Positions 54,008 to 64,000 of a stretch of DNA of 64,000 bases are shown here, piece after piece. The stretch covers positions 1 to 64,000 of IMG/VR virus record IMGVR_UViG_2933953506_000002. One strand, given 5' to 3'. Within the stretch, counting starts at the first letter, position 1. Each line of letters begins with the position of its first letter. The translations under genes were made by a program, and so were the position numbers. This DNA is from a virus. Taxonomy: Duplodnaviria > Caudoviricetes. Below the pieces are notes generated by a model that saw only the letters and a program-made list of their open reading frames with translations, ran no database searches and was not told where the DNA came from.

Positions 54008-54361
54008 GTGACTACTCAGCGAACCTCCTGGGCGCTCGCGCGTGAAGCCGCCGGCCTGTTCCTCACCGCGTTCGGCCTGCTCGGCGTCCTCGTGGCGTTG
54101 GGCGCACTCCACTGGGCCGCCGGACTCTCCGCCGCGATGGCCGGTCTCCTCGCCACGGGCCTGTTCATGCGCCCGAAGCCGACCGCAGCGCCCTGGGCGC
54201 ACCTTGCCCGTGCCGCCGTCTGCATCCTCGGCTACGGCGGTCTCACCGGCTGCGCGTTCGCCCTCTGCACCCCCCTGGGCTGGATCGGCGTCGCCCTGGC
54301 GGTCGTGCTCCTCGGCCTGTGGCTCACCACCCGTGAGCACGAGGACGAGGGGGCCGCCTGA
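54008..54361 (+). CDS. Small 4-TM membrane protein coupled to portal
   Basis: Four hydrophobic segments; TGATG overlap with portal; start placed by the promoter motif. Confidence 0.75.
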   Translation: MTTQRTSWALAREAAGLFLTAFGLLGVLVALGALHWAAGLSAAMAGLLATGLFMRPKPTAAPWAHLARAAVCILGYGGLTGCAFALCTPLGWIGVALAVVLLGLWLTTREHEDEGAA

Positions 54362-56820
54362 TGCCCCGCCAGTTCCTCCCCACGCTCCGGGGACTCCTCG
54401 TTCCGCGCTCCGCTGCTCCCCCACCCGCACCGACCGCTGAGACCAAGGACCTGCTCGCGGGCAACGCGTACGTGTCGATGACCTACGCCGGCGTCACGAA
54501 CGTGTGGGGCACGCCCGGCCGAGCGGACGGCTGGGACATGGAACGCGTCATCGTCGAGGGTTACGAGCGCTCCATCTGGACCTTCAAGTCCATCGAGGCG
54601 ATCAGCAAGCACGCCAGCACCCTCCCGATTCAAATCGGCCGAGGCGGAGACGAACGGCGCTTCGAGGAGACCCTCGACGATCACCCGCTGTTGAAGCTGC
54701 TCAACAAGAAGGCCAATCCGCTGGAGAGCGGCGATGTCTTCAAGAAGCGGCTGAGCGCGCAGCTCCTTCTGTCGAAGAAGGGCGTCTTCATCGAGAAGAC
54801 CTACAGCCGTGGCGGCACCCTCGTACGTCTCGACCTGCTTCCGCCGGACCGCGTCCAGATCATCCCCGACGACCGCAACGCCGACTATGTGAAGCACTTT
54901 GAGTTCACGGACTACAGCGGCCACGTCCGGGAGCTGCTGCCCAATCACGTCATTTGGATTCGCGATCCCCACCCCGTCGACCCTTTTTGCGGCGTCACCC
55001 CGCTCGAAGCGGCGGGCCTGTCCATCGACCTGGACGTGAAGGCCCGCACCTACAACATCAGTTTTATTGACAATGACGGCAGACCGGGCGGAATTGTCGG
55101 TATCGACCTGGACGGCGTCGACCAGCGCGAGGTCGACCGCATCCAGAAGCGACTGGCCCCCGGCGCGCACAACGCCGGCCAGCTCACCCTCGTCGGCACC
55201 GGGCCCGGCGGCGTCACCTACGTCGACACCTCCGCCCGCCCCCGCGAGATGGCCTACGAGACGCTGTCCAGTACCTCCAAGGGCGAGATCCTGGCCGCGT
55301 TCGGCGTCCCAGAGAGCATCGTCGGCAATGCCTCCGAGCGGACCTACGCGAACGCCGACCGCGAGGAATACAACTTCTGGGACCACACGGAACTGCCCCA
55401 CCTCAACCTGATCGCGTCCGGGTTCGACGCGGACCTTGATGACGAGTGGATCGTCCGCTTCGACACCTCCAGTGTTCAGGCGTTGGAGTTTCCCCGTCGT
55501 CAGGCCCGGGAGGAAGCCCGCAAGGAGTGGGAAGCCGGCCTCATCACGATCGACGAGTACCGGGAGATCGCGGGGCGCCCGGCATTCAACGTCCCACAGT
55601 CCCGGGCCCTGTGGATCTCTCCGCAGAAGGCCCCCGTCCCCGCCAACGACCAGGACGCCGCCGCACTGGGCCTCGGCCCCGACCCGGCCGCGGGTGGAAC
55701 ACCCGGAGCCGCGCCCACCGGCGCCCCGCTCCCGCCGACCGCTCCGGACACCGCGGCCGCCGACGTCGCCGCCGCCCGCGCTCTGGACGCTGGCCCGAGC
55801 GCCGCCGCGGATGTCGCCGCCGCACGGGCGCAGGGCACTCCCCTCGCCCTGCCTGCCGGTTCGACGGCTACCGACGCCGTCGCCGCGGCCCGCGCCACCA
55901 CTACCGACAGCGGCCCCGGCGACGCGGCCGCCGACGTCGACCGCGCCCGCAGCACTCAGAACGCTGCACTCCCCGGCGACGCCGCCGAGGACGTCGAAGC
56001 CGCACGCGCCACGGTCGAGACCAAGGCCCTGCCCGAGGACGACGGATACGAGGTCACTGACGACGACTTCGACGCTCTGTCTATGGCCGTGGCCACAGCC
56101 GTCACCGCGCTCCTCGCACGCCAGGAAGGCGTCATACTCGCCCGGCTCCGCGCCCCGAAAATCCGCAAGTACACGAGGTACTGGGAGCCAGAGAACGACG
56201 ACGACGTCCGGCACGTCGACACCGACCTCGACCAGGACCGTGTGGTCAGCGCCGCCCGCTGGGCCGAGGAGACCAGCCAATCCCTGACCCCGATCCTGCA
56301 GCAGGCGGCCATCGCCACGGCACGCAAGGTCGGCCAGGCCCTCACCAGCACGGACGAGGTCCCGCCGGCCGCGGCCGCGGCCGCCATTGTTACCGCGGCG
56401 TACGCCGGCGAGGCCATGACCACGTTCCTCCGCGAACTGGCCACCGCCTTGTTCGACGCGCAGCACGGCGTACCGACGATCAGCGACCTCGAGAACACAG
56501 TCGCCTTCTTCTACCGCTCCGCGGCCCCCAGCCTGGTGGCACGGCTGGCCGAAGCCTGCGCCGTGGCGACCATCAACGGCGCCGCAGACGCGGCCGCGGA
56601 GCACGCCGGCCCCGATGTCGTCCGGACCTGGATCACCCGCGGAGACACCCGCGTACGGCCCGCTCACAAGGCGCTCCACGGCACGACGCTGCCCGTCGGC
56701 ACCCCGTACACCGTCGACGGCGCCAGCCTCCGCTACCCCGGCGACCCCTTCGCCCCCATCGCCCTCACGATCAACTGCCGCTGCCGCCTGCACTACGCCA
56801 CCGACAAGGAGCCCCAGTGA
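54361..56820 (+). CDS. Phage portal protein fused to a Mu gpF-like head morphogenesis domain
   Basis: HPLLKLLNKKANP, LPPDRVQI, GVTPLEAA, EILAAFGVPESIVG, TYAN, TIDEYR; C-terminal WITRGDTRVRPAH...PGDP...INCRC. Confidence 0.92.
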   Translation: MPRQFLPTLRGLLVPRSAAPPPAPTAETKDLLAGNAYVSMTYAGVTNVWGTPGRADGWDMERVIVEGYERSIWTFKSIEAISKHASTLPIQIGRGGDERRFEETLDDHPLLKLLNKKANPLESGDVFKKRLSAQLLLSKKGVFIEKTYSRGGTLVRLDLLPPDRVQIIPDDRNADYVKHFEFTDYSGHVRELLPNHVIWIRDPHPVDPFCGVTPLEAAGLSIDLDVKARTYNISFIDNDGRPGGIVGIDLDGVDQREVDRIQKRLAPGAHNAGQLTLVGTGPGGVTYVDTSARPREMAYETLSSTSKGEILAAFGVPESIVGNASERTYANADREEYNFWDHTELPHLNLIASGFDADLDDEWIVRFDTSSVQALEFPRRQAREEARKEWEAGLITIDEYREIAGRPAFNVPQSRALWISPQKAPVPANDQDAAALGLGPDPAAGGTPGAAPTGAPLPPTAPDTAAADVAAARALDAGPSAAADVAAARAQGTPLALPAGSTATDAVAAARATTTDSGPGDAAADVDRARSTQNAALPGDAAEDVEAARATVETKALPEDDGYEVTDDDFDALSMAVATAVTALLARQEGVILARLRAPKIRKYTRYWEPENDDDVRHVDTDLDQDRVVSAARWAEETSQSLTPILQQAAIATARKVGQALTSTDEVPPAAAAAAIVTAAYAGEAMTTFLRELATALFDAQHGVPTISDLENTVAFFYRSAAPSLVARLAEACAVATINGAADAAAEHAGPDVVRTWITRGDTRVRPAHKALHGTTLPVGTPYTVDGASLRYPGDPFAPIALTINCRCRLHYATDKEPQ

Positions 56821-57062
56821 GACGCACAGCCAGCTTCATCCGACGGAACCTCAGCGCGTTTCTCTGGGGCGGCTGGGCGCTGTTCTTCGCCGTCTACGAG
56901 ACCATCGCGCTGATTACCAAGAAGGACGACGACACGCTGAGCGAGAACACGCGCAAGCTGTTCCGCATTCGCAGCTCGAAGGCAGGACGCGCCGCGTTCA
57001 CGGTCATCTTGGGCGGGGGCGCAGCGTGGTTCCTCCTGCACATCCTCACCGAGACGATGTAA
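56817..57062 (+). CDS. Small 2-TM membrane protein
   Basis: AAGGAG RBS, GTGA coupling; two hydrophobic segments around DDTLSE. Confidence 0.7.
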   Translation: MRRTASFIRRNLSAFLWGGWALFFAVYETIALITKKDDDTLSENTRKLFRIRSSKAGRAAFTVILGGGAAWFLLHILTETM

Positions 57063-57132: not shown

Positions 57133-57163
57133 CGCGACGCTAACCACCCGCACTGTGCATGGT
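57133..57163 (+). promoter_or_regulatory. Class II promoter motif, copy 7 (leaderless giant gene)
   Basis: CGCGACGCTAA-N14-CATGGT, then 7 nt to ATG 57171. Confidence 0.75.
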
Positions 57164-57170
57164 CCGCGCC

Positions 57171-60100
57171 ATGCTGAATCGCCCCACTGCACAGGCTGAG
57201 TCGCAGGACCTGAGTCGCGACCTCGAGGTCAAGGTCACGCGCCGGCCGTGGAACCCTGCCCTGCACCCCCGGGACAGCAAGGGCCGCTTCATCGAGACCG
57301 GCGGCGTGGTGAGGACCTGGGGCGGCAAGCTCGCGCGCGTCATCCGTGCGCTCCCGCACGACCGCATCCTCGTCCAGGACCAGACCGGCCCGGACGAGTT
57401 CCGCGGCCGCAGGCACACCACCAGTGCCAAGTGGGTCAGCATGGTCGCGCGCCCCGACGGCAGCGCGCCCACCGACGACGAAGAGAAGGTCGCCGAAGAG
57501 GACGAGCGGCGCACCCAGGACCCGCGCCGCGGCAACGGCGTTGCCCGCGACGACGACGGCGACCCCAACACCCCGAACGAGCCTCACGACCAGGACGACA
57601 AGGGCCGCCCGATCGGCGCCGATGACGGCGACGGCCCGGACGACGATGACGACCAGGACGAGCCCGAGGACGGCGCCCACCCGGTCAACGTCGATGCCCT
57701 GCCGAACCAGCAGCATGCCGCCGGGGCCCGGTACGCCGATACCGCCGCCGTCCGCCGCCACTTCATGCAGGTAGCCGCCCAGCCCGGCACGAGCACGGAC
57801 ATGGCCACCTTCCTGCGCTCGGTGGCACACGACGACGACCTGCGGACCACACCGTCCGGCCGACTCCTCATCCTCCTCGACGACCGGCCCGAACACGCCG
57901 GCCGCTGGAACCTCACCGCAACCGGCTCCGGACAGCGCGTCGACGCCGCCGGCACCTTTGCCACCGCCGAGGACGCCGCCCGATTCGCCGAACACCTCGA
58001 CAAGACCGCCGTCAACGGTCAGCTCACCAAGTTCCAGCAGCCGTTCGACTTCTCCGACCCACAACTGGACCGGGCCGCCCACGACTGGCGCTCCACCAAG
58101 GGCGAGAACATCCAGGGCGCCATCCAGCGGGCCCGCACGGAGTTCGACGGCACCCCGGCACCCGCGGCCGCGCCGAAGGCCACCACGGACAGCCCGACCG
58201 ACGGCAACGGCCAGCGCTTCAGCACGCTCCAGGCCGTTCGCGCCCACTGGCAGCAGCGCCTCGACCAGATCAACGAACTCGGCCCGGACAGCCTCCGAGA
58301 GCAGCGCGCCGCGCGACACCTGGAAGGCCTGATTGGCAACGACCGGATCAAGCTTGTCGGCCGCGGCCAGTTCGTCGTCGGCCAGGACCAGAACGGCGAG
58401 TGGTACCTGGTCGCCACTGGCAACGGCCTGCCGCTCCGCCGTCGGTGGACCTCCCAGCAGGAAGCGCAGGCATTCGCCCAGTCCTTCACCGAGAACGCCC
58501 CCATGGGCGACGACGGAAAGCCACTGGACCTCTCCGACCCCAACGTCCGCATCGCGACGTGGCGCTCGGACGACAACCGGTCGATCAGCGAGGTCATCGA
58601 CGCGGCCGCCGAGAGGTTCCAGCGCGACGACGCCGCGGAGGGCGGCCCGGAGGCGACCCCGGCGCCGGCCGCCGCTCCGGAGACGCCCGCCGCCCCGCAG
58701 GCACCGGAGACCCCGGAGGAGCCTCAGACGCCCGCACTGCCGGGCAACGCCGAGCCCGTCGAGGGCGTCGAGGGGTACCACTACGTCAACGACGGCGGCT
58801 CAATCACGCTGTACGGCCCGGACGGACAGGTCGCCGCGACCAGCGAGCGCGGCTACCCGCCGAAGGCCAAGATCGACGGCGTCACCGTGCCCGTGCCGCA
58901 GTACCCGAAGCAAGGCGCCGCGGTGATGGCCCGGCTGCACCGCGCCGCCCAGAACCCCGACCAGCGCGACCGGATCACCGCGGCGTGGGTGATGAAGCCC
59001 GGCAAGGAAGGCAAGCCCGCCAAGCGGGTCATGGTCTTCCGCGGCACCATCAAGGGCGACGAGCGGGACTACAGCGCCGTCGGCTCCACGCGTGCCATCA
59101 AATGGGCCCCGTCCCTGCGGGGGTACTCGACCCAGTCGAACATGACCGAGGCCACCCGGGACGAGCGGATTACCGAGGTCCTGTCCAAGCTCGCCCGCCA
59201 GGGCCGCAACATCCACGTCACCGACGAGACCGCCGCGGGCACCCCCAACGCTCCGGCCAACGCCGTCGACGAGACCGAGGCTCTGCGCGAGGCCATCGCC
59301 AACGCGGACGACCCCCGCCTGTCGCAGATGAAGCACGAGCGGTGGGGCATGCTCAACAGCACCCGCTCCGAGGCCAAGCGCAAGCGACTCAACTCCGAGA
59401 TCGAAATGATCAACGAGGAGTTGAAGCGCCGTCGGCAGGAGCGGGACGAGGCTGCCGCCCGGGACGCCACATCGCTCAGCGACGACGACATCGCCAACCG
59501 CATCCGCGAGTCGCAGGAAGAACGCGGCACGTACGGCTCCCGCAGGGGCCAGGAAGCCAACGACGTTGAGCGGGCCATCTACAGCGAGCGCCGCCGCCGT
59601 TCGCAGGCCCTCGTCGACGATGACACCGATCTGACCACGGCCGCTGAGGACGACCTGGTAAAGGCCCGCGAGACGATCGCCGAACGGGTCCGCATGCACC
59701 AGGCCGCCGGCGACGACCCCGAGGCCGAGCGCATCATGCGCCAGGCCCTGCAGGCGCGGCACGACGCCGTCGTCGGCGAGCAGCAGCGCCGCCATGCCCA
59801 GCAGATCGCCGACCGGCCGCCGGTCGTCGACCTCACCGACGAGGAACTGTCGCAGGAGTACAACGACTTGCTCCGGCGCGACTTCCGGAAGGCCCCGCCG
59901 GAGGCGCAGCAGGTCCTCGAGGGCCGCATGGAGGACGTCAAGCGGGAGCGCCGCGACCGGGAGAAGCGGGCTATCACCGACCGGGACGCCCCCGAGAACC
60001 TGAGTGATGAGGACCTGAAGGCGGAGTACACCGAGCTTCGCCGAACGCGCTCCTCGTACACCGGGACCGACGACGTCAAGGCGGCCCGCAAGGAACGCAT

Positions 60101-63100
60101 GGCCGTGCTGGAGGCCGAGCAGAACCGCCGCAGCACTACGCCGGAGGTCGAGCAGCTCGTCGCGCGCGTCGACAACCCCGACGACAACGGCATGATCAGC
60201 ATCGGCGGCGGCAGCGATTACGGCTACGTCGACTACCGGGACCAGACACACGGGCACACGACCCGCGAGATCGGATGGACCTGGGGCAAGCACAGTTGGG
60301 GGCACGCAGACACCGCCTACCCCTCCCGCGCCGCAGCTCTGGCAGCGATGGTCCAGGCGTACGACAACGACCCCGACACCCGCGGTGAGCGCACCTGGGG
60401 CCGTAAGCGCCCCGTGTTCGTGCCGAAGATGTTCGTCGAGCTCTACCAGAACGAGCGTCTTCGCGACCGGCTCGCCGATGCCAGCGAGGAGCGGAAGTAC
60501 CTCTACAGCCTGTTCCGGGACCGGTACGGCTGGGACGACGGCGTGAACCCCCTGGTGCCCAGCAACAAAAAGGGCCACCACATCAAGGGCCGGAAGCTGT
60601 GGGTGCCCGAAGGCCTCCTCGCCGAGCTGAACCGGGTGACGGAGGAGCTTTCCCGGGAGATGTCCGTACGGGCCACGGACCGGGACGCGGACAGTTCCGA
60701 CCGGCAGAAGGCCAAGACCCGGCTCGCGTCCATCAACGTGGCTCTGCACGGCATTGAGGCGCTGCGCGAGTCAGTCCGCAAGAATGGCGGGGACGACGAC
60801 CGGAAGGTCATCTCCCGCGAGGAGATCGAGGCACAGCAGGCCGCGCTCCGTGCAGCGCTGGGAGGCGACGATGACGAACATGTTCAGTCCGATGGTCCGG
60901 GATCACTGGCGGACGTACCGGCCCAAGGAGTGGGCGGCGATGACCGATCCGGAGGCGTTCGTGGAGACGAAGGCCAGGGAGATCGAGACTCAGATTCTGA
61001 AGGCCGAGGAGGCGCTGGAGCAGACGGTTCCGGAGCCGACGGAGTACGAGGAGCAGGTCGGCCGGCACAAGCAGATCAGGGCGGACGCAACGGCGATGGT
61101 CCTGGCGGATCTTCTGCCGGAGCCGGAGCCCGGGGCGGAGACGGCGCCGGAGCAGACGCCGATGGAGCAGCACCTGCAGGAGATCAGGGACCTGATGTAC
61201 GACGCGTAGCGCGGTTCCGGCCGGACCCGGCCGACGCGCCCAAGGGCGCCCGCGCGCGTGCGACGGCCAATGTCGAGGCCATCCGCGTCCTCAAGAAGGT
61301 TGAGGCCGAGAACCGGCCGGCCACCGACGAGGAGCGCCGCATCCTCGCCCGCTGGTCCGGCTGGGGCTCGGTTCCGATCCTCTTCGCCAACGAGCCGAAC
61401 GAGAAGGAGCCCCGCTACCAGCAGGGCGGCACCCGGTACGGCAAGTTCGCCAAGGACCACGAGCGGTGGTCCGAGTACAGCGACATTCGCAGCGAGTTGC
61501 AGCGCGTGCTCACGCCTGTGGAGTTCCGGCAGGCATCCCGCGGCGTGCTGTCCATGCACTACACGCCGCAGCCCATCGCTGAGGCGATGTGGGAAGGCCT
61601 TCGGGCATTCGGCTTCGAGCGCGGCGACGTCCTTGAAGCCGGCTCCGGCGCGGGCACGTTCTTCGGCGTCGCTCCGGACGGCGCCCGCCTGACCGGCGTC
61701 GAACTGGACCCGACCACGGCCCGGATCGCTCAGGCGATCTACCCGCACGCCAACGTTCTCAACGAGTCTTTCGCGGAGACCGACGCCCGGCCGGGCACCT
61801 TTGACGCCGCCATCGGCAACGTGCCCTTCGCTCGGGTCCCGTTCGATGACAAGCGGTACCCGGCAGAGAGCCTTCACAACGGCTTCGTCACCAAGGAGAT
61901 CGCCCTCGTCCGGCCCGGCGGTATCACCGCCGTCATCACCTCCCGCCAGACCCTCGACTCCAAGGGCGACAAGGCCCGCCGCCAGATGGCCAAGTACGGC
62001 GACCTGGTCGGCGCCGTCCGCCTGCCCTCCGGCGTCTTCACCGACGCCGGCACCGGGGTCACCACCGACGTCCTCGTGTTCCGCCGCCGCGAGGACGGCA
62101 CCGAGCCGGCCGACACGTCATGGCTGGACGCCCCTGAGCGGGACATCAACGGCACCGCGCACCACATCAACGCCTACTTCGACGAGCACCCCGAGCACAT
62201 CCTCGGCACGCTCACCACGCAGTCCGGCCCGTACGGGCCCGAGGTGACCGTCAAGGGCGACCCGGCCAAGGCCGCCGAGCAGCTTCGCGCCGCGCTCGAC
62301 GACATCGCCACCAAGGCGAAGGCCGACGGCCGCGGCTACGAGCCGCACCCCGACGGCGACAACCGGCCTCCGGTACAGCTCCAGGCGGCCCGGGAGAAGC
62401 ACGCGAACGACTGGACCGGCCGCCTCTACGAGGGCGACGACGGCCAGTTGTACCAGCACGTGAACGGTGCCGAACCGGTCCTGCTGGAGCCCGCCGACGG
62501 CAACACCGCCCAGCTTCGCGCCCTCATGCAGCTCCGCGACGTCGCCGCCGAACTGCGCGAGCTGGACCGGAAGAACGACGAGGAGGAGCGCGCCGAGGCT
62601 CTGCGCGCCCAACTCCGCGACTTGCACGCCGCCTACGTCGCCGAGTACGGCCCCCTGTCCAAGCCGGGCCAGCACCGCACCAAGGGCGGCCGCCCGACGG
62701 CGTGGGGGTACTTCCGGGCCGACCCGGACGCCGCGGCGGTCCTCGCTCTGGAACGGTGGGACGCCAACAAGGGTGAGCCTGTCCTCTCCCGCGTCTTCAC
62801 TGAGCGCGCCGCGGCCCGCCGACAGCCGCTCTCCTCGACCAACGACCCGAAGGCGGCCCTGGCCGCGGTCGTCGCTGCCAAGGGCGAAGTGGACCTCGGC
62901 GAGATCGCCCGGCTCCTCGACGTCACCCCGCAGGAGGCGGTGAAGCGCCTCGGCAACGAGGTCTTCACCGACCCGGAGACCGGCCGCCTCGAACTGGCCA
63001 GCGCCTACCTGTCCGGCGCCGTCCGCGACAAGCTCGACGCCGCCCGCAAGGCCGCCGAGCGCGACCCGGCGTACGCGGTCAACGTCGCCGCGCTGGAGGC

Positions 63101-64000
63101 CGTGCAGCCGCCGGACCGCACCATCGGCCAGTTCACGCCTGAGATGGGCGCCCACTGGACGCCCCCAGAGCTTCTGCAGGGCTTCCTGCGCGAGTACCTG
63201 GGCGACCGCACACTCCGCGTCGCTCATGACGACCGGTACGGCTGGATTCTCAACACCGGCCGCGTGCCCGAGGCCAACAACGTCATGTACGGCGTCCCGG
63301 CCGTCGAGCCCGACCCGGAAAAGGGCATCAAGGGCAACAAGGGCAAGAACGCCGTGGAGATCGCCCGCGCGATCCTCGGCTTCGGCTCGCTGACCGTCTA
63401 CGAGGACGACAAGCGCAAGGAAGTCGACGAGGCGACCTCACGTCTGATCCGGCAGAAGGCCGATCAGATGCGGGCCGAGTTCGCCAAGTACGCCACGGCG
63501 AACGCCGAGCGGCTGAGCGTCCTCACCGACTCGTACAACCGCATCATGAACGGGCACATCGTCCGTTCGTACGAGGGCATGTCGCCCACCCTCGAGGGCT
63601 TCACCCCCGACCGGAACCCGCACGCCTGGCAGCGCTCCGGCGCGGCCCGGATGCAGTTCGAGCGGGGCGTGATCCTCGCCCATGAGGTGGGCCTCGGTAA
63701 GACGTCCACGCTCGTCATGGGTACCCAGGCCCTCAAGGCGTCCGGGCAGATCGAAAAGCCCATGGCCGTGGTGCCGAACCACCTCGCGCGCCAGTGGTAC
63801 AACGAGGCCCGGTTCCTGTACCCGAACGCCGACATCCACCTGATCACCTCGGCGGACCTGGCCGGCGACCGGCGCGGCAGCACGCTGGAGTGGCTGCGCG
63901 CCAACAGGCCGGACCTGGTCATCTTCACTGAAGAGGCGTTCGGCTCGATCAAGATGAGCCCGGAGGCTCAGGACGAGTACGAGTTCCGGGAGCTGGAGGC
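57171..64000 (+). CDS. Giant DarB-like N6-methyltransferase/SNF2 helicase protein, truncated by window end (>2,270 aa)
   Basis: Same frame carries WNPALHPRDSKGRF (57249), HYTP (61557), LEAGSGAG (61632), GNVPF (61815), HEVGLGKT (63681); no ORF in this frame is in the track, consistent with no stop before the window end. Confidence 0.88.
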   Translation, partial: MLNRPTAQAESQDLSRDLEVKVTRRPWNPALHPRDSKGRFIETGGVVRTWGGKLARVIRALPHDRILVQDQTGPDEFRGRRHTTSAKWVSMVARPDGSAPTDDEEKVAEEDERRTQDPRRGNGVARDDDGDPNTPNEPHDQDDKGRPIGADDGDGPDDDDDQDEPEDGAHPVNVDALPNQQHAAGARYADTAAVRRHFMQVAAQPGTSTDMATFLRSVAHDDDLRTTPSGRLLILLDDRPEHAGRWNLTATGSGQRVDAAGTFATAEDAARFAEHLDKTAVNGQLTKFQQPFDFSDPQLDRAAHDWRSTKGENIQGAIQRARTEFDGTPAPAAAPKATTDSPTDGNGQRFSTLQAVRAHWQQRLDQINELGPDSLREQRAARHLEGLIGNDRIKLVGRGQFVVGQDQNGEWYLVATGNGLPLRRRWTSQQEAQAFAQSFTENAPMGDDGKPLDLSDPNVRIATWRSDDNRSISEVIDAAAERFQRDDAAEGGPEATPAPAAAPETPAAPQAPETPEEPQTPALPGNAEPVEGVEGYHYVNDGGSITLYGPDGQVAATSERGYPPKAKIDGVTVPVPQYPKQGAAVMARLHRAAQNPDQRDRITAAWVMKPGKEGKPAKRVMVFRGTIKGDERDYSAVGSTRAIKWAPSLRGYSTQSNMTEATRDERITEVLSKLARQGRNIHVTDETAAGTPNAPANAVDETEALREAIANADDPRLSQMKHERWGMLNSTRSEAKRKRLNSEIEMINEELKRRRQERDEAAARDATSLSDDDIANRIRESQEERGTYGSRRGQEANDVERAIYSERRRRSQALVDDDTDLTTAAEDDLVKARETIAERVRMHQAAGDDPEAERIMRQALQARHDAVVGEQQRRHAQQIADRPPVVDLTDEELSQEYNDLLRRDFRKAPPEAQQVLEGRMEDVKRERRDREKRAITDRDAPENLSDEDLKAEYTELRRTRSSYTGTDDVKAARKERMAVLEAEQNRRSTTPEVEQLVARVDNPDDNGMISIGGGSDYGYVDYRDQTHGHTTREIGWTWGKHSWGHADTAYPSRAAALAAMVQAYDNDPDTRGERTWGRKRPVFVPKMFVELYQNERLRDRLADASEERKYLYSLFRDRYGWDDGVNPLVPSNKKGHHIKGRKLWVPEGLLAELNRVTEELSREMSVRATDRDADSSDRQKAKTRLASINVALHGIEALRESVRKNGGDDDRKVISREEIEAQQAALRAALGGDDDEHVQSDGPGSLADVPAQGVGGDDRSGGVRGDEGQGDRDSDSEGRGGAGADGSGADGVRGAGRPAQADQGGRNGDGPGGSSAGAGARGGDGAGADADGAAPAGDQGPDVRRVARFRPDPADAPKGARARATANVEAIRVLKKVEAENRPATDEERRILARWSGWGSVPILFANEPNEKEPRYQQGGTRYGKFAKDHERWSEYSDIRSELQRVLTPVEFRQASRGVLSMHYTPQPIAEAMWEGLRAFGFERGDVLEAGSGAGTFFGVAPDGARLTGVELDPTTARIAQAIYPHANVLNESFAETDARPGTFDAAIGNVPFARVPFDDKRYPAESLHNGFVTKEIALVRPGGITAVITSRQTLDSKGDKARRQMAKYGDLVGAVRLPSGVFTDAGTGVTTDVLVFRRREDGTEPADTSWLDAPERDINGTAHHINAYFDEHPEHILGTLTTQSGPYGPEVTVKGDPAKAAEQLRAALDDIATKAKADGRGYEPHPDGDNRPPVQLQAAREKHANDWTGRLYEGDDGQLYQHVNGAEPVLLEPADGNTAQLRALMQLRDVAAELRELDRKNDEEERAEALRAQLRDLHAAYVAEYGPLSKPGQHRTKGGRPTAWGYFRADPDAAAVLALERWDANKGEPVLSRVFTERAAARRQPLSSTNDPKAALAAVVAAKGEVDLGEIARLLDVTPQEAVKRLGNEVFTDPETGRLELASAYLSGAVRDKLDAARKAAERDPAYAVNVAALEAVQPPDRTIGQFTPEMGAHWTPPELLQGFLREYLGDRTLRVAHDDRYGWILNTGRVPEANNVMYGVPAVEPDPEKGIKGNKGKNAVEIARAILGFGSLTVYEDDKRKEVDEATSRLIRQKADQMRAEFAKYATANAERLSVLTDSYNRIMNGHIVRSYEGMSPTLEGFTPDRNPHAWQRSGAARMQFERGVILAHEVGLGKTSTLVMGTQALKASGQIEKPMAVVPNHLARQWYNEARFLYPNADIHLITSADLAGDRRGSTLEWLRANRPDLVIFTEEAFGSIKMSPEAQDEYEFRELE
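60871..61209 (+). CDS. 112-aa helical acidic protein nested in the +1 frame of the giant gene (TnpV-like)
   Basis: GGAGG 5 nt before ATG; GC3 bias switches to this frame; MTNMFSPMVRDHWRTYRPKEWAAMTDPEAFVETKAREIE... Confidence 0.75.
   Translation: MTNMFSPMVRDHWRTYRPKEWAAMTDPEAFVETKAREIETQILKAEEALEQTVPEPTEYEEQVGRHKQIRADATAMVLADLLPEPEPGAETAPEQTPMEQHLQEIRDLMYDA

Follow-up and report, generated by a model that had tools for sequence, protein, structure and literature searches.

The DNA analysed here, called the window, is a stretch of 64,000 nucleotides (positions 1 to 64,000 of IMG/VR record IMGVR_UViG_2933953506_000002; Caudoviricetes) with a GC content of about 70%, taken from a source record that is a 115,774-base provirus. 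Its plus strand carries the giant open reading frame (ORF) of a predicted DarB-like methyltransferase-helicase of 5686 aa, which begins at 57159, is free of stops to the end of the window at 64000 and runs on to 74219 of the record; its frame is referred to as frame 0. Inside this frame, on the same strand and shifted by +1, lies a second, candidate gene at 60871-61209 (ATG at 60871, TAG at 61207-61209) for an acidic TnpV-like protein of 112 aa that is predicted to form five helices (P0001). A Shine-Dalgarno (SD)-like GGGAGG stands at 60860-60865, 5 nt 5' of the nested ATG, and is read as Gly-Gly in frame 0. In frame 0 the same stretch (60864-61208) encodes a G/D/A/R-rich linker, about residues 1236-1350 of the giant protein, between an N-terminal region and the enzyme core. 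The first 460 residues past the overlap (61209-62588, plus strand), delimited by tblastn and structure prediction, comprise a helical N-terminal part that is conserved (RFRP...ANVEAIRVLK...RWSGWGS), followed by the core of the N6-adenine methyltransferase.

A preliminary description made from the letters alone had placed here a shift of the GC bias at third codon positions (GC3) to the +1 frame, a GGAGG-N5-ATG before an ORF for a helical 112-aa product, and a host frame that stays open as a G/D/A/R-rich linker. All four were recovered. In windows of 150 nt, the GC content of giant-frame codons over 60819-61208 is 0.90-0.94 at position 1 and 0.36-0.58 at position 3, and the flanks have a giant-frame GC3 of 0.86-1.00; everywhere else within the 17-kb giant ORF, GC3 stays at 0.78 or higher. 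In the +1 reading of the overlap, GC1/GC2/GC3 are 0.66/0.40/0.92, the normal coding-frame pattern for this genome. The same switch is seen in relatives at 85% and 68% nucleotide identity (loci L001 and L003) and in the phages Bcep22 and Itty13, and because it recurs in this way it is more than chance. The GGAGG lies at 60861-60865 with a 5-nt spacer to the ATG, and the text of the linker reads GGDDDEHVQSDGPGSLAD...DQGPDVRRVARFRPDP, as quoted in that description.

The two readings of these bases differ sharply in their predicted structures. An AlphaFold2 model of the small protein, built on an alignment of 80 relatives, consists of five helices (mean pLDDT, the predicted local distance difference test, 94.0; pTM, the predicted template modelling score, 0.74). 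When a 273-residue segment of frame 0 was modelled with an alignment of 23 sequences, residues 59-173 had a pLDDT of 31-39 and no secondary structure, and these residues correspond to 60864-61208 of the window, which is exactly the overlap. The helices before it reach a pLDDT of 52-73 and the N-terminal part of the methyltransferase after it 89-96. The same bases are thus predicted to encode a folded protein in the +1 frame and a disordered linker in frame 0.

Frame 0 has no ATG, GTG or TTG from the nested stop to the RFRP motif, and the part upstream of the overlap has no stop of its own. Frame 0 must therefore be read through the overlap to make the enzyme. An error of sequencing or assembly, with two compensating indels in the record, was also considered, and the comparative data already refute it: the same structure is present in more than 60 independent assemblies, and contigs of two sequencing runs, one of which may be the source of this DNA, have no indels over 60300-61800. 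We give that explanation practically no weight. Within the nested ORF, a 35-nt GC-rich stretch at 61116-61150 (PEPEPGAETAPE in the +1 frame) has matches with 5 mismatches in unrelated high-depth contigs of three runs; it is low-complexity sequence and not a repeat of the element.

Homologs with stops in the +1 frame, or reads with a stop or frameshift in the host frame, had been named beforehand as counter-evidence, and stops were looked for in 54 actinobacterial loci (6041 nested codons). No stop was found in the nested frame and none in frame 0, and the +2 frame contained 182, distributed over all 54 loci. A tblastn search with the small protein returned 13 plasmid records; in the six Streptomyces plasmid records that were fetched, each match falls within an annotated giant coding sequence (CDS), in its +1 frame, and has a conserved GGGAGG or GAGG and an ATG. 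The +1 ORF, its start and the SD-like site are kept in seven of seven Streptomyces plasmid loci. In a scan that used one genome per species, the nested ORF was intact in all 43 loci from 43 species, and in 39 of them frame 0 extended without a stop over 2 kb or more upstream and as far as the locus end. The other four are a remnant (L019), two genes with frameshifts (L028 and L033) and a further broken copy (L037). GGGAGG or GAGG followed by ATG or GTG precedes the nested gene in most relatives. Across lineages the small proteins are only 28-44% identical, yet the ORF, the start and the SD-like site are kept.

It had been stated in the preliminary description that similar small genes stand separately upstream of methyltransferase-helicase genes on mobile elements. 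This did not hold in any of the separately annotated cases that were opened. In plasmids of Ruania, Nocardioides, Pimelobacter and Arthrobacter (L007-L010) the small gene has a separate annotation; in Nocardioides, Pimelobacter and Arthrobacter it stands just 5' of a SNF2/helicase gene, and the Ruania record has no full-length big gene annotated, and its big frame stops after about 1.7 kb. In all four the big frame has no stop anywhere along the small gene, which is +1 to it, and begins upstream of the small gene with a start of its own and a conserved leader, preceded by an SD-like site in the clearest cases (L007 and L010). The Prokaryotic Genome Annotation Pipeline (PGAP) chose starts at 3447 in L008, 3633 in L009 and 3714 in L010, each of which cuts off a conserved FRP..LAPSGAKAR..AN motif and leaves it upstream, in DNA taken as intergenic. 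Judged by their open frames, these separately annotated genes are nested as well.

The small gene was found in 15 of 401 sampled Actinomycetes genomes. Frame 0 runs through it to the end of the locus in 13 of 15 locus rows, of which two (L067 and L072) are the same ORF; L058 and L061 are broken and L069 has no in-frame upstream start. The typical leader in these genomes is short, about 22-27 residues, as in MARRK.QIDGQLSLESLW, has an SD and an ATG of its own and starts about 80 nt before the small ATG. The short-leader forms (L059-L064, L007, L009, L010, L070 and L071) share a conserved peptide about 60-110 nt upstream of the small gene (for example MARRK.QIDGQLSLESLW, ..EFDLWG.., ..QPDLFSLFDE..), which we take to resemble the sliding-clamp-binding QL[SD]LF-type motif. 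The genome of L067 and L072 (G199:C7:149454-150348) matches the small-protein family twice on one strand, at sites separated by about 600 nt. A search with a typical family member found 74 plasmid records, all from Actinomycetota; of the 40 rows listed, 6 have at the match a feature that NCBI names 'TnpV protein', and 4 have the big helicase or methyltransferase there.

How probable is it that frame 0 is open by chance? The synonymous codons of each small gene were redrawn according to the codon usage of its own locus, and frame 0 stayed open with a probability of 0.009-0.58 (median 0.31); it was observed open in 52 of the 52 loci tested. The product of one such probability for each of seven deep lineages, by our own arithmetic on the resampling values, is about 2e-6. 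These values bear on the idea that the arrangement is an annotation artefact, in which three tandem genes (N-terminal part, small gene and enzyme) merely look fused at high GC. In its favour, chance openness is about 0.3 per locus, and PGAP does split some relatives. However, in no case does the upstream part end in a stop or the enzyme have a start codon ahead of RFRP, the phase is preserved in 39 of 43 loci, and frame 0 is open in low-GC relatives in which none of 4000 resamples left it open. We regard tandem genes as very improbable.

Further support comes from rates of change. The proposed check of dN/dS (the ratio of nonsynonymous to synonymous rates) in both frames was run. Between the window and L001, third positions differ at 16-44 sites in 19 flanking windows of 113 codons, and the overlap has 14, 11 and 14 differences at positions 1, 2 and 3; the +1 frame gives a dN/dS of 0.52 and frame 0 one of 1.2-1.3. 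In a second clade, four pairs gave a similar picture. Parsimony changes per site were then counted on trees of three clades, without L028, which is frameshifted, L005, whose inner ORF is truncated, and L045, which has a short flank. At frame-0 positions 1/2/3 the overlap has 1.35/1.29/1.35 changes per site in clade A (22 sequences), 0.75/0.56/0.49 in clade B (14 sequences) and 0.51/0.30/0.33 in clade C (10 sequences), against 2.64-4.61, 0.86-1.61 and 1.03-1.88, respectively, at third positions of the flanks. The overlap rate is below all 26 flank windows, so that synonymous-site variation is suppressed; no overlap position evolves at the synonymous rate of the flanks in any of the three clades, which is what dual coding predicts.

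Beyond Actinobacteria, counterparts in phages were found through the enzyme module only. The 460 residues past the overlap matched 121 phage records by tblastn, many from query residue 1-3 and at 33-36% identity, including the DarB-like proteins of Bcep22 (gp75), BcepIL02 and DC1 and those of phages of Ralstonia, Erwinia, Klebsiella, Vibrio and Pseudomonas. Twelve loci were fetched, from phages of Burkholderia, Pseudomonas, Klebsiella and Vibrio, a Listeria-phage record and others. A +1 ORF of at least 107 stop-free codons lies inside an open giant frame in 10 of the 12 and encodes 87-134 aa from the chosen start; the ORFs end just before the matched module, with the exception of Atu_ph08 (about 600 nt before), and a purine-rich SD-like stretch precedes the ATG in most of the ten. 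Among off-frame runs in the low-GC loci the inner ORF is the longest, with 121 codons where the median is 12 and 143 codons where it is 7. When the resampling was applied to the Listeria-phage record, VvAW1, the H. ganmani prophage and the Bacteroides phage BKO1-TP3, 0 of 4000 draws left frame 0 open; about 8 stops were expected and none was observed. The probability of an open frame 0 was 0.0015-0.04 in SopranoGao, Atu_ph08 and Pavtok and 0.20-0.28 in phages with 67% GC. The inner ORF is listed in none of the eight annotated phage loci that could be judged, out of the ten with a +1 ORF (the Listeria record is unannotated and Itty13 is annotated on the opposite strand). The DarB-like frame of Itty13 is open along all 6.3 kb of the locus (L075, NC_070969.1 3151-9422), and the record places its three CDSs there on the opposite strand; in this genome of 67% GC the strand may have been mis-annotated, or the labels may follow a quirk of the record.

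The kinship of the small protein with TnpV, also suggested in the preliminary description, can be traced through intermediate sequences. A phmmer search against 1.8 billion representatives gave 143 clusters at E<=1e-3, of 75-275 aa. Its relatives mostly align from their own residue 2 and have therefore been called as small proteins in their own right. The Pfam family TnpV (PF14198) matches 18 of 80 of these relatives (best E 5.1e-5), and the nearest ESM-Atlas clusters are named TnpV (scores 0.92 and 0.91). Among the phage +1 ORFs, that of the Listeria-phage record (39% GC) scores 29.0 bits against a cut-off of 27, those of SopranoGao (17.7), Itty13 (15.7) and Bcep22 (14.2) are below it, and those of Gerry, Atu_ph08, the H. 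ganmani prophage and BKO1-TP3 have no Pfam TnpV match. By hhalign, the family of the window (A1) aligns with the MNLN..HWKE group at a probability of 90.8%, over 29 columns only, and with the Bcep22/Gerry pair at 38.9%; a hidden Markov model of A1 gives individually weak scores on the phage +1 ORFs (-1.4 to 19.9 bits).

Other searches with the small protein were negative. The proposed Foldseek comparison of its model was run and found no match at E<=0.001 in the PDB or BFVD; a sequence profile search of the PDB gave 0 matches, and VIA-align in its wide mode gave a best Z of 6.0, to generic helical pairs. The best E value in PHROGs was 0.081, five family members had no match in NCBIfam, and a PF14198 search of the whole record returned nothing. 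The phage collection yielded no match by tblastn with the small protein or with a more typical family member, nor by blastn with the overlap region, and a composition screen for low-GC relatives of the small protein gave nothing useful.

Several observations weigh against a gene pair coding in both frames. In 52 of 54 actinobacterial loci one antisense frame is also free of stops, so that openness alone is weak evidence at 70% GC; this would suit three tandem genes too, and it illustrates how easily spurious long ORFs arise opposite genes of high GC3. The small protein itself matches no Pfam family, TnpV (gathering threshold 27 bits) not even at E<=1, no solved fold resembles its model, and the +1 ORFs of H. 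ganmani and Bacteroides have no detectable similarity to TnpV. One sub-clade has only AAGGGG, a weak SD, before the nested start. Contigs from RNA libraries cover 61169-61380 only, may be DNA and do not show transcription. The Streptococcus phage phi-SgaBSJ31_rum and the fecal record MT835857 have no such +1 ORF, and therefore the enzyme can do without the small gene. The remaining points would equally suit a fossil, an absorbed ancestral gene that is no longer translated while the giant protein alone is made. In close pairs dN/dS in the +1 frame is only 0.52-0.60. A recently homogenised or locally younger neutral stretch would likewise produce the equal, lowered rates seen at all positions in clade A. 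In one Streptomyces plasmid locus (L005, 2974-3246) the inner ORF has 90 aa and not 114, the last helix is lost and the giant frame is open. Two remnants keep the small ORF intact while it evolves at a dN/dS of 0.87.

These remnants (L002 6001-6687 and L019 5901-6563, corresponding to 60744/60774-61404 of the window) are about 660 bp long, share the same right boundary and contain only the small gene and its flanks; their methyltransferase stub is broken by an indel or a stop, and IS5 follows in L002. They were considered as a natural test of independent function of the small gene and were rejected as such because of the dN/dS of 0.87.

Against a fossil stand the persistence of ORF, start and SD-like site in lineages so diverged in the small protein, the coevolution-supported fold with its pLDDT of 94, and the survival of the ORF in genomes with 38-50% GC, where an unused frame closes within about 7-19 codons. 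The deep conservation of the protein and the low-GC loci likewise disfavour a younger neutral stretch. A fossil is thus an improbable explanation in our judgment. We hold it still less probable that programmed frameshifting fuses the TnpV-like segment to the N-terminal part or the enzyme instead of leaving it a free protein. Such fusions are frequent in mobile elements, and here two frames lie one base apart on one mRNA. However, +1 stops occur 50-230 nt upstream of the nested ATG in every clade and again at the end of the ORF, no slippery heptamer is visible by eye near either end of the overlap, the relatives align from residue 2 as free-standing small proteins, and the nested start and SD are conserved. 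We consider it likely, with good confidence, that 60871-61209 is a dual-coding nested gene pair, and the comparisons indicate that selection keeps both frames open, in this element as in distant relatives.

In such a dual-coding pair, ribosomes starting at 57159 would read frame 0 through the overlap, and the linker would join an N-terminal region specific to the element to the conserved enzyme core. The small protein would be made from the same mRNA by independent internal initiation at GGGAGG-N5-ATG, as Rz1 is inside Rz. It might serve as a dedicated partner of the enzyme, most likely an acidic chaperone or inhibitor that sits on the nucleic-acid-binding surface until the enzyme is delivered. 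We put this forward tentatively, at somewhat less than even chances. The partner role is suggested because the small gene keeps its place directly ahead of the methyltransferase module no matter what is fused on the upstream side: a head-module protein here, the product of a gene after the type IV coupling protein gene in plasmids or, elsewhere, a leader of about 22-27 residues. A chaperone or inhibitor is suggested by the charge of the small protein, which is -13; 78 of 80 family members have a net negative charge (median -12.5). More generally, TnpV-family proteins might be cis-encoded obligate partners of DarB-like enzymes, with the overlap as an ancient, cross-phylum device that couples their synthesis and the small protein as a DNA-mimicking chaperone or inhibitor until delivery in the virion or by conjugation; this wider proposal we think rather unlikely.

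In overprinting, the disordered frame is usually the younger one. Since the linker is the disordered frame, the small gene is probably the older reading and the linker was overprinted by read-through of a pre-existing gene. The preliminary description had proposed that a virion-targeting N-terminal region was fused to the enzyme by reading through the partner gene, keeping both. What stands is that both frames are kept and that the linker probably arose by reading through the small gene; what falls is that the N-terminal region of this element created the fusion, as the arrangement is also present in the short-leader Actinomycetes, in phages of Proteobacteria and in a low-GC record. The read-through event is ancient or recurrent and not specific to this element.

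The giant protein itself is assigned by the PHROGs profile phrog_10089 ('DarB-like antirestriction'), which matches its residues 1192-2273 over profile positions 1416-2476 (E 7.9e-178). The Pfam N6_Mtase family (PF02384) scores 22.0 bits, above the cut-off of 20.4, and the SNF2-type helicase family PF00176 scores 20.6 bits, below its cut-off of 24.9, the translated part in the window including only the start of the helicase. Two genes 5' of the giant ORF, at 54361-56820 on the plus strand, lies the gene of a portal protein with a C-terminal head-morphogenesis region (phrog_2662 portal, E 5.9e-83; phrog_2468 head morphogenesis, E 4.2e-20). It is overlapped by 4 nt by an ORF of 81 aa (phrog_3555, unknown function), after which the giant gene follows directly (54361-57062). 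The N-terminal region of the giant protein matched no family in Pfam or PHROGs. By eye, it contains two copies of a module of about 180 residues (57159-58700, residues about 250-500; ..FDFSDPQLDRAAHDWRS.. and ..LDLSDPNVRIATWRSDD..) and, near its start, a WNPALHPRDSKGRFIE motif.

If the obligate-partner reading were true, it would give an orphan Pfam family its first function and add a new component to antirestriction. Already now a function-less family, TnpV, is attached to a defined enzyme, and it is possibly a missing component of DarB-type antirestriction. The case further reveals that annotation goes wrong systematically: a record lists the giant ORF or the small gene but not both, and where the small gene is listed the enzyme receives a wrong, truncated start. 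To our knowledge, few long out-of-frame overlaps in bacteria and phages are conserved across phyla, and at high GC such overlaps are usually dismissed as artefacts; the present overlap has strong comparative support, including genomes with 38-50% GC.

Known systems resemble the pair in part. In phage lambda, the spanin gene Rz1 lies in the +1 frame inside Rz with its own ribosome-binding site, and the two products cooperate. As here, a whole gene is contained in the +1 frame on the same strand with its own ribosome-binding site; in contrast to Rz/Rz1, the host gene of the present pair encodes a 5686-aa enzyme, the overlap falls in a disordered linker, the inner protein is predicted to be cytoplasmic, acidic and helical and is not a lipoprotein, and the partnership is only inferred. 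In Bacillus subtilis, comS encodes a small regulatory protein out of frame within srfAB, the gene of a giant multidomain enzyme, and is not known outside close Bacillus relatives. The present pair shares with it a small out-of-frame gene in a giant enzyme gene and, unlike comS, is found across phyla. TnpV (PF14198) is like the nested protein in size, helical build and the HW..P..Y and AEE..L motifs at its N and C termini; TnpV is filed as a free-standing transposon gene of unknown function, whereas the gene described here is nested.

DarB of P1, gp75 of Bcep22 and gp69 of JC1 combine a methyltransferase and a helicase in a gene of the head module, as is predicted for the giant protein. The Bcep22-type proteins are 33-36% identical to the giant protein over 460 aa, and P1 DarB matches only residues 114-293 of this module and is therefore without the N-terminal part beside which the nested gene sits. 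According to one report, an embedded Rz1 class is known for Bcep22-like phages, and the DarB-like gp69 of JC1 was detected in virions by mass spectrometry (PMC9144972). From this and from the portal gene two genes upstream, the giant protein might by context be targeted to, and packaged in, the virion. The literature that was searched does not mention any gene nested in a DarB-like one; journals behind subscription and supplementary files, among them the first paper on Bcep22/BcepIL02 and the mass-spectrometry tables for JC1, lay outside that search. Embedded +1 genes as such were already known, and it is the combination of a TnpV-like with a DarB-like gene that appears to be new.

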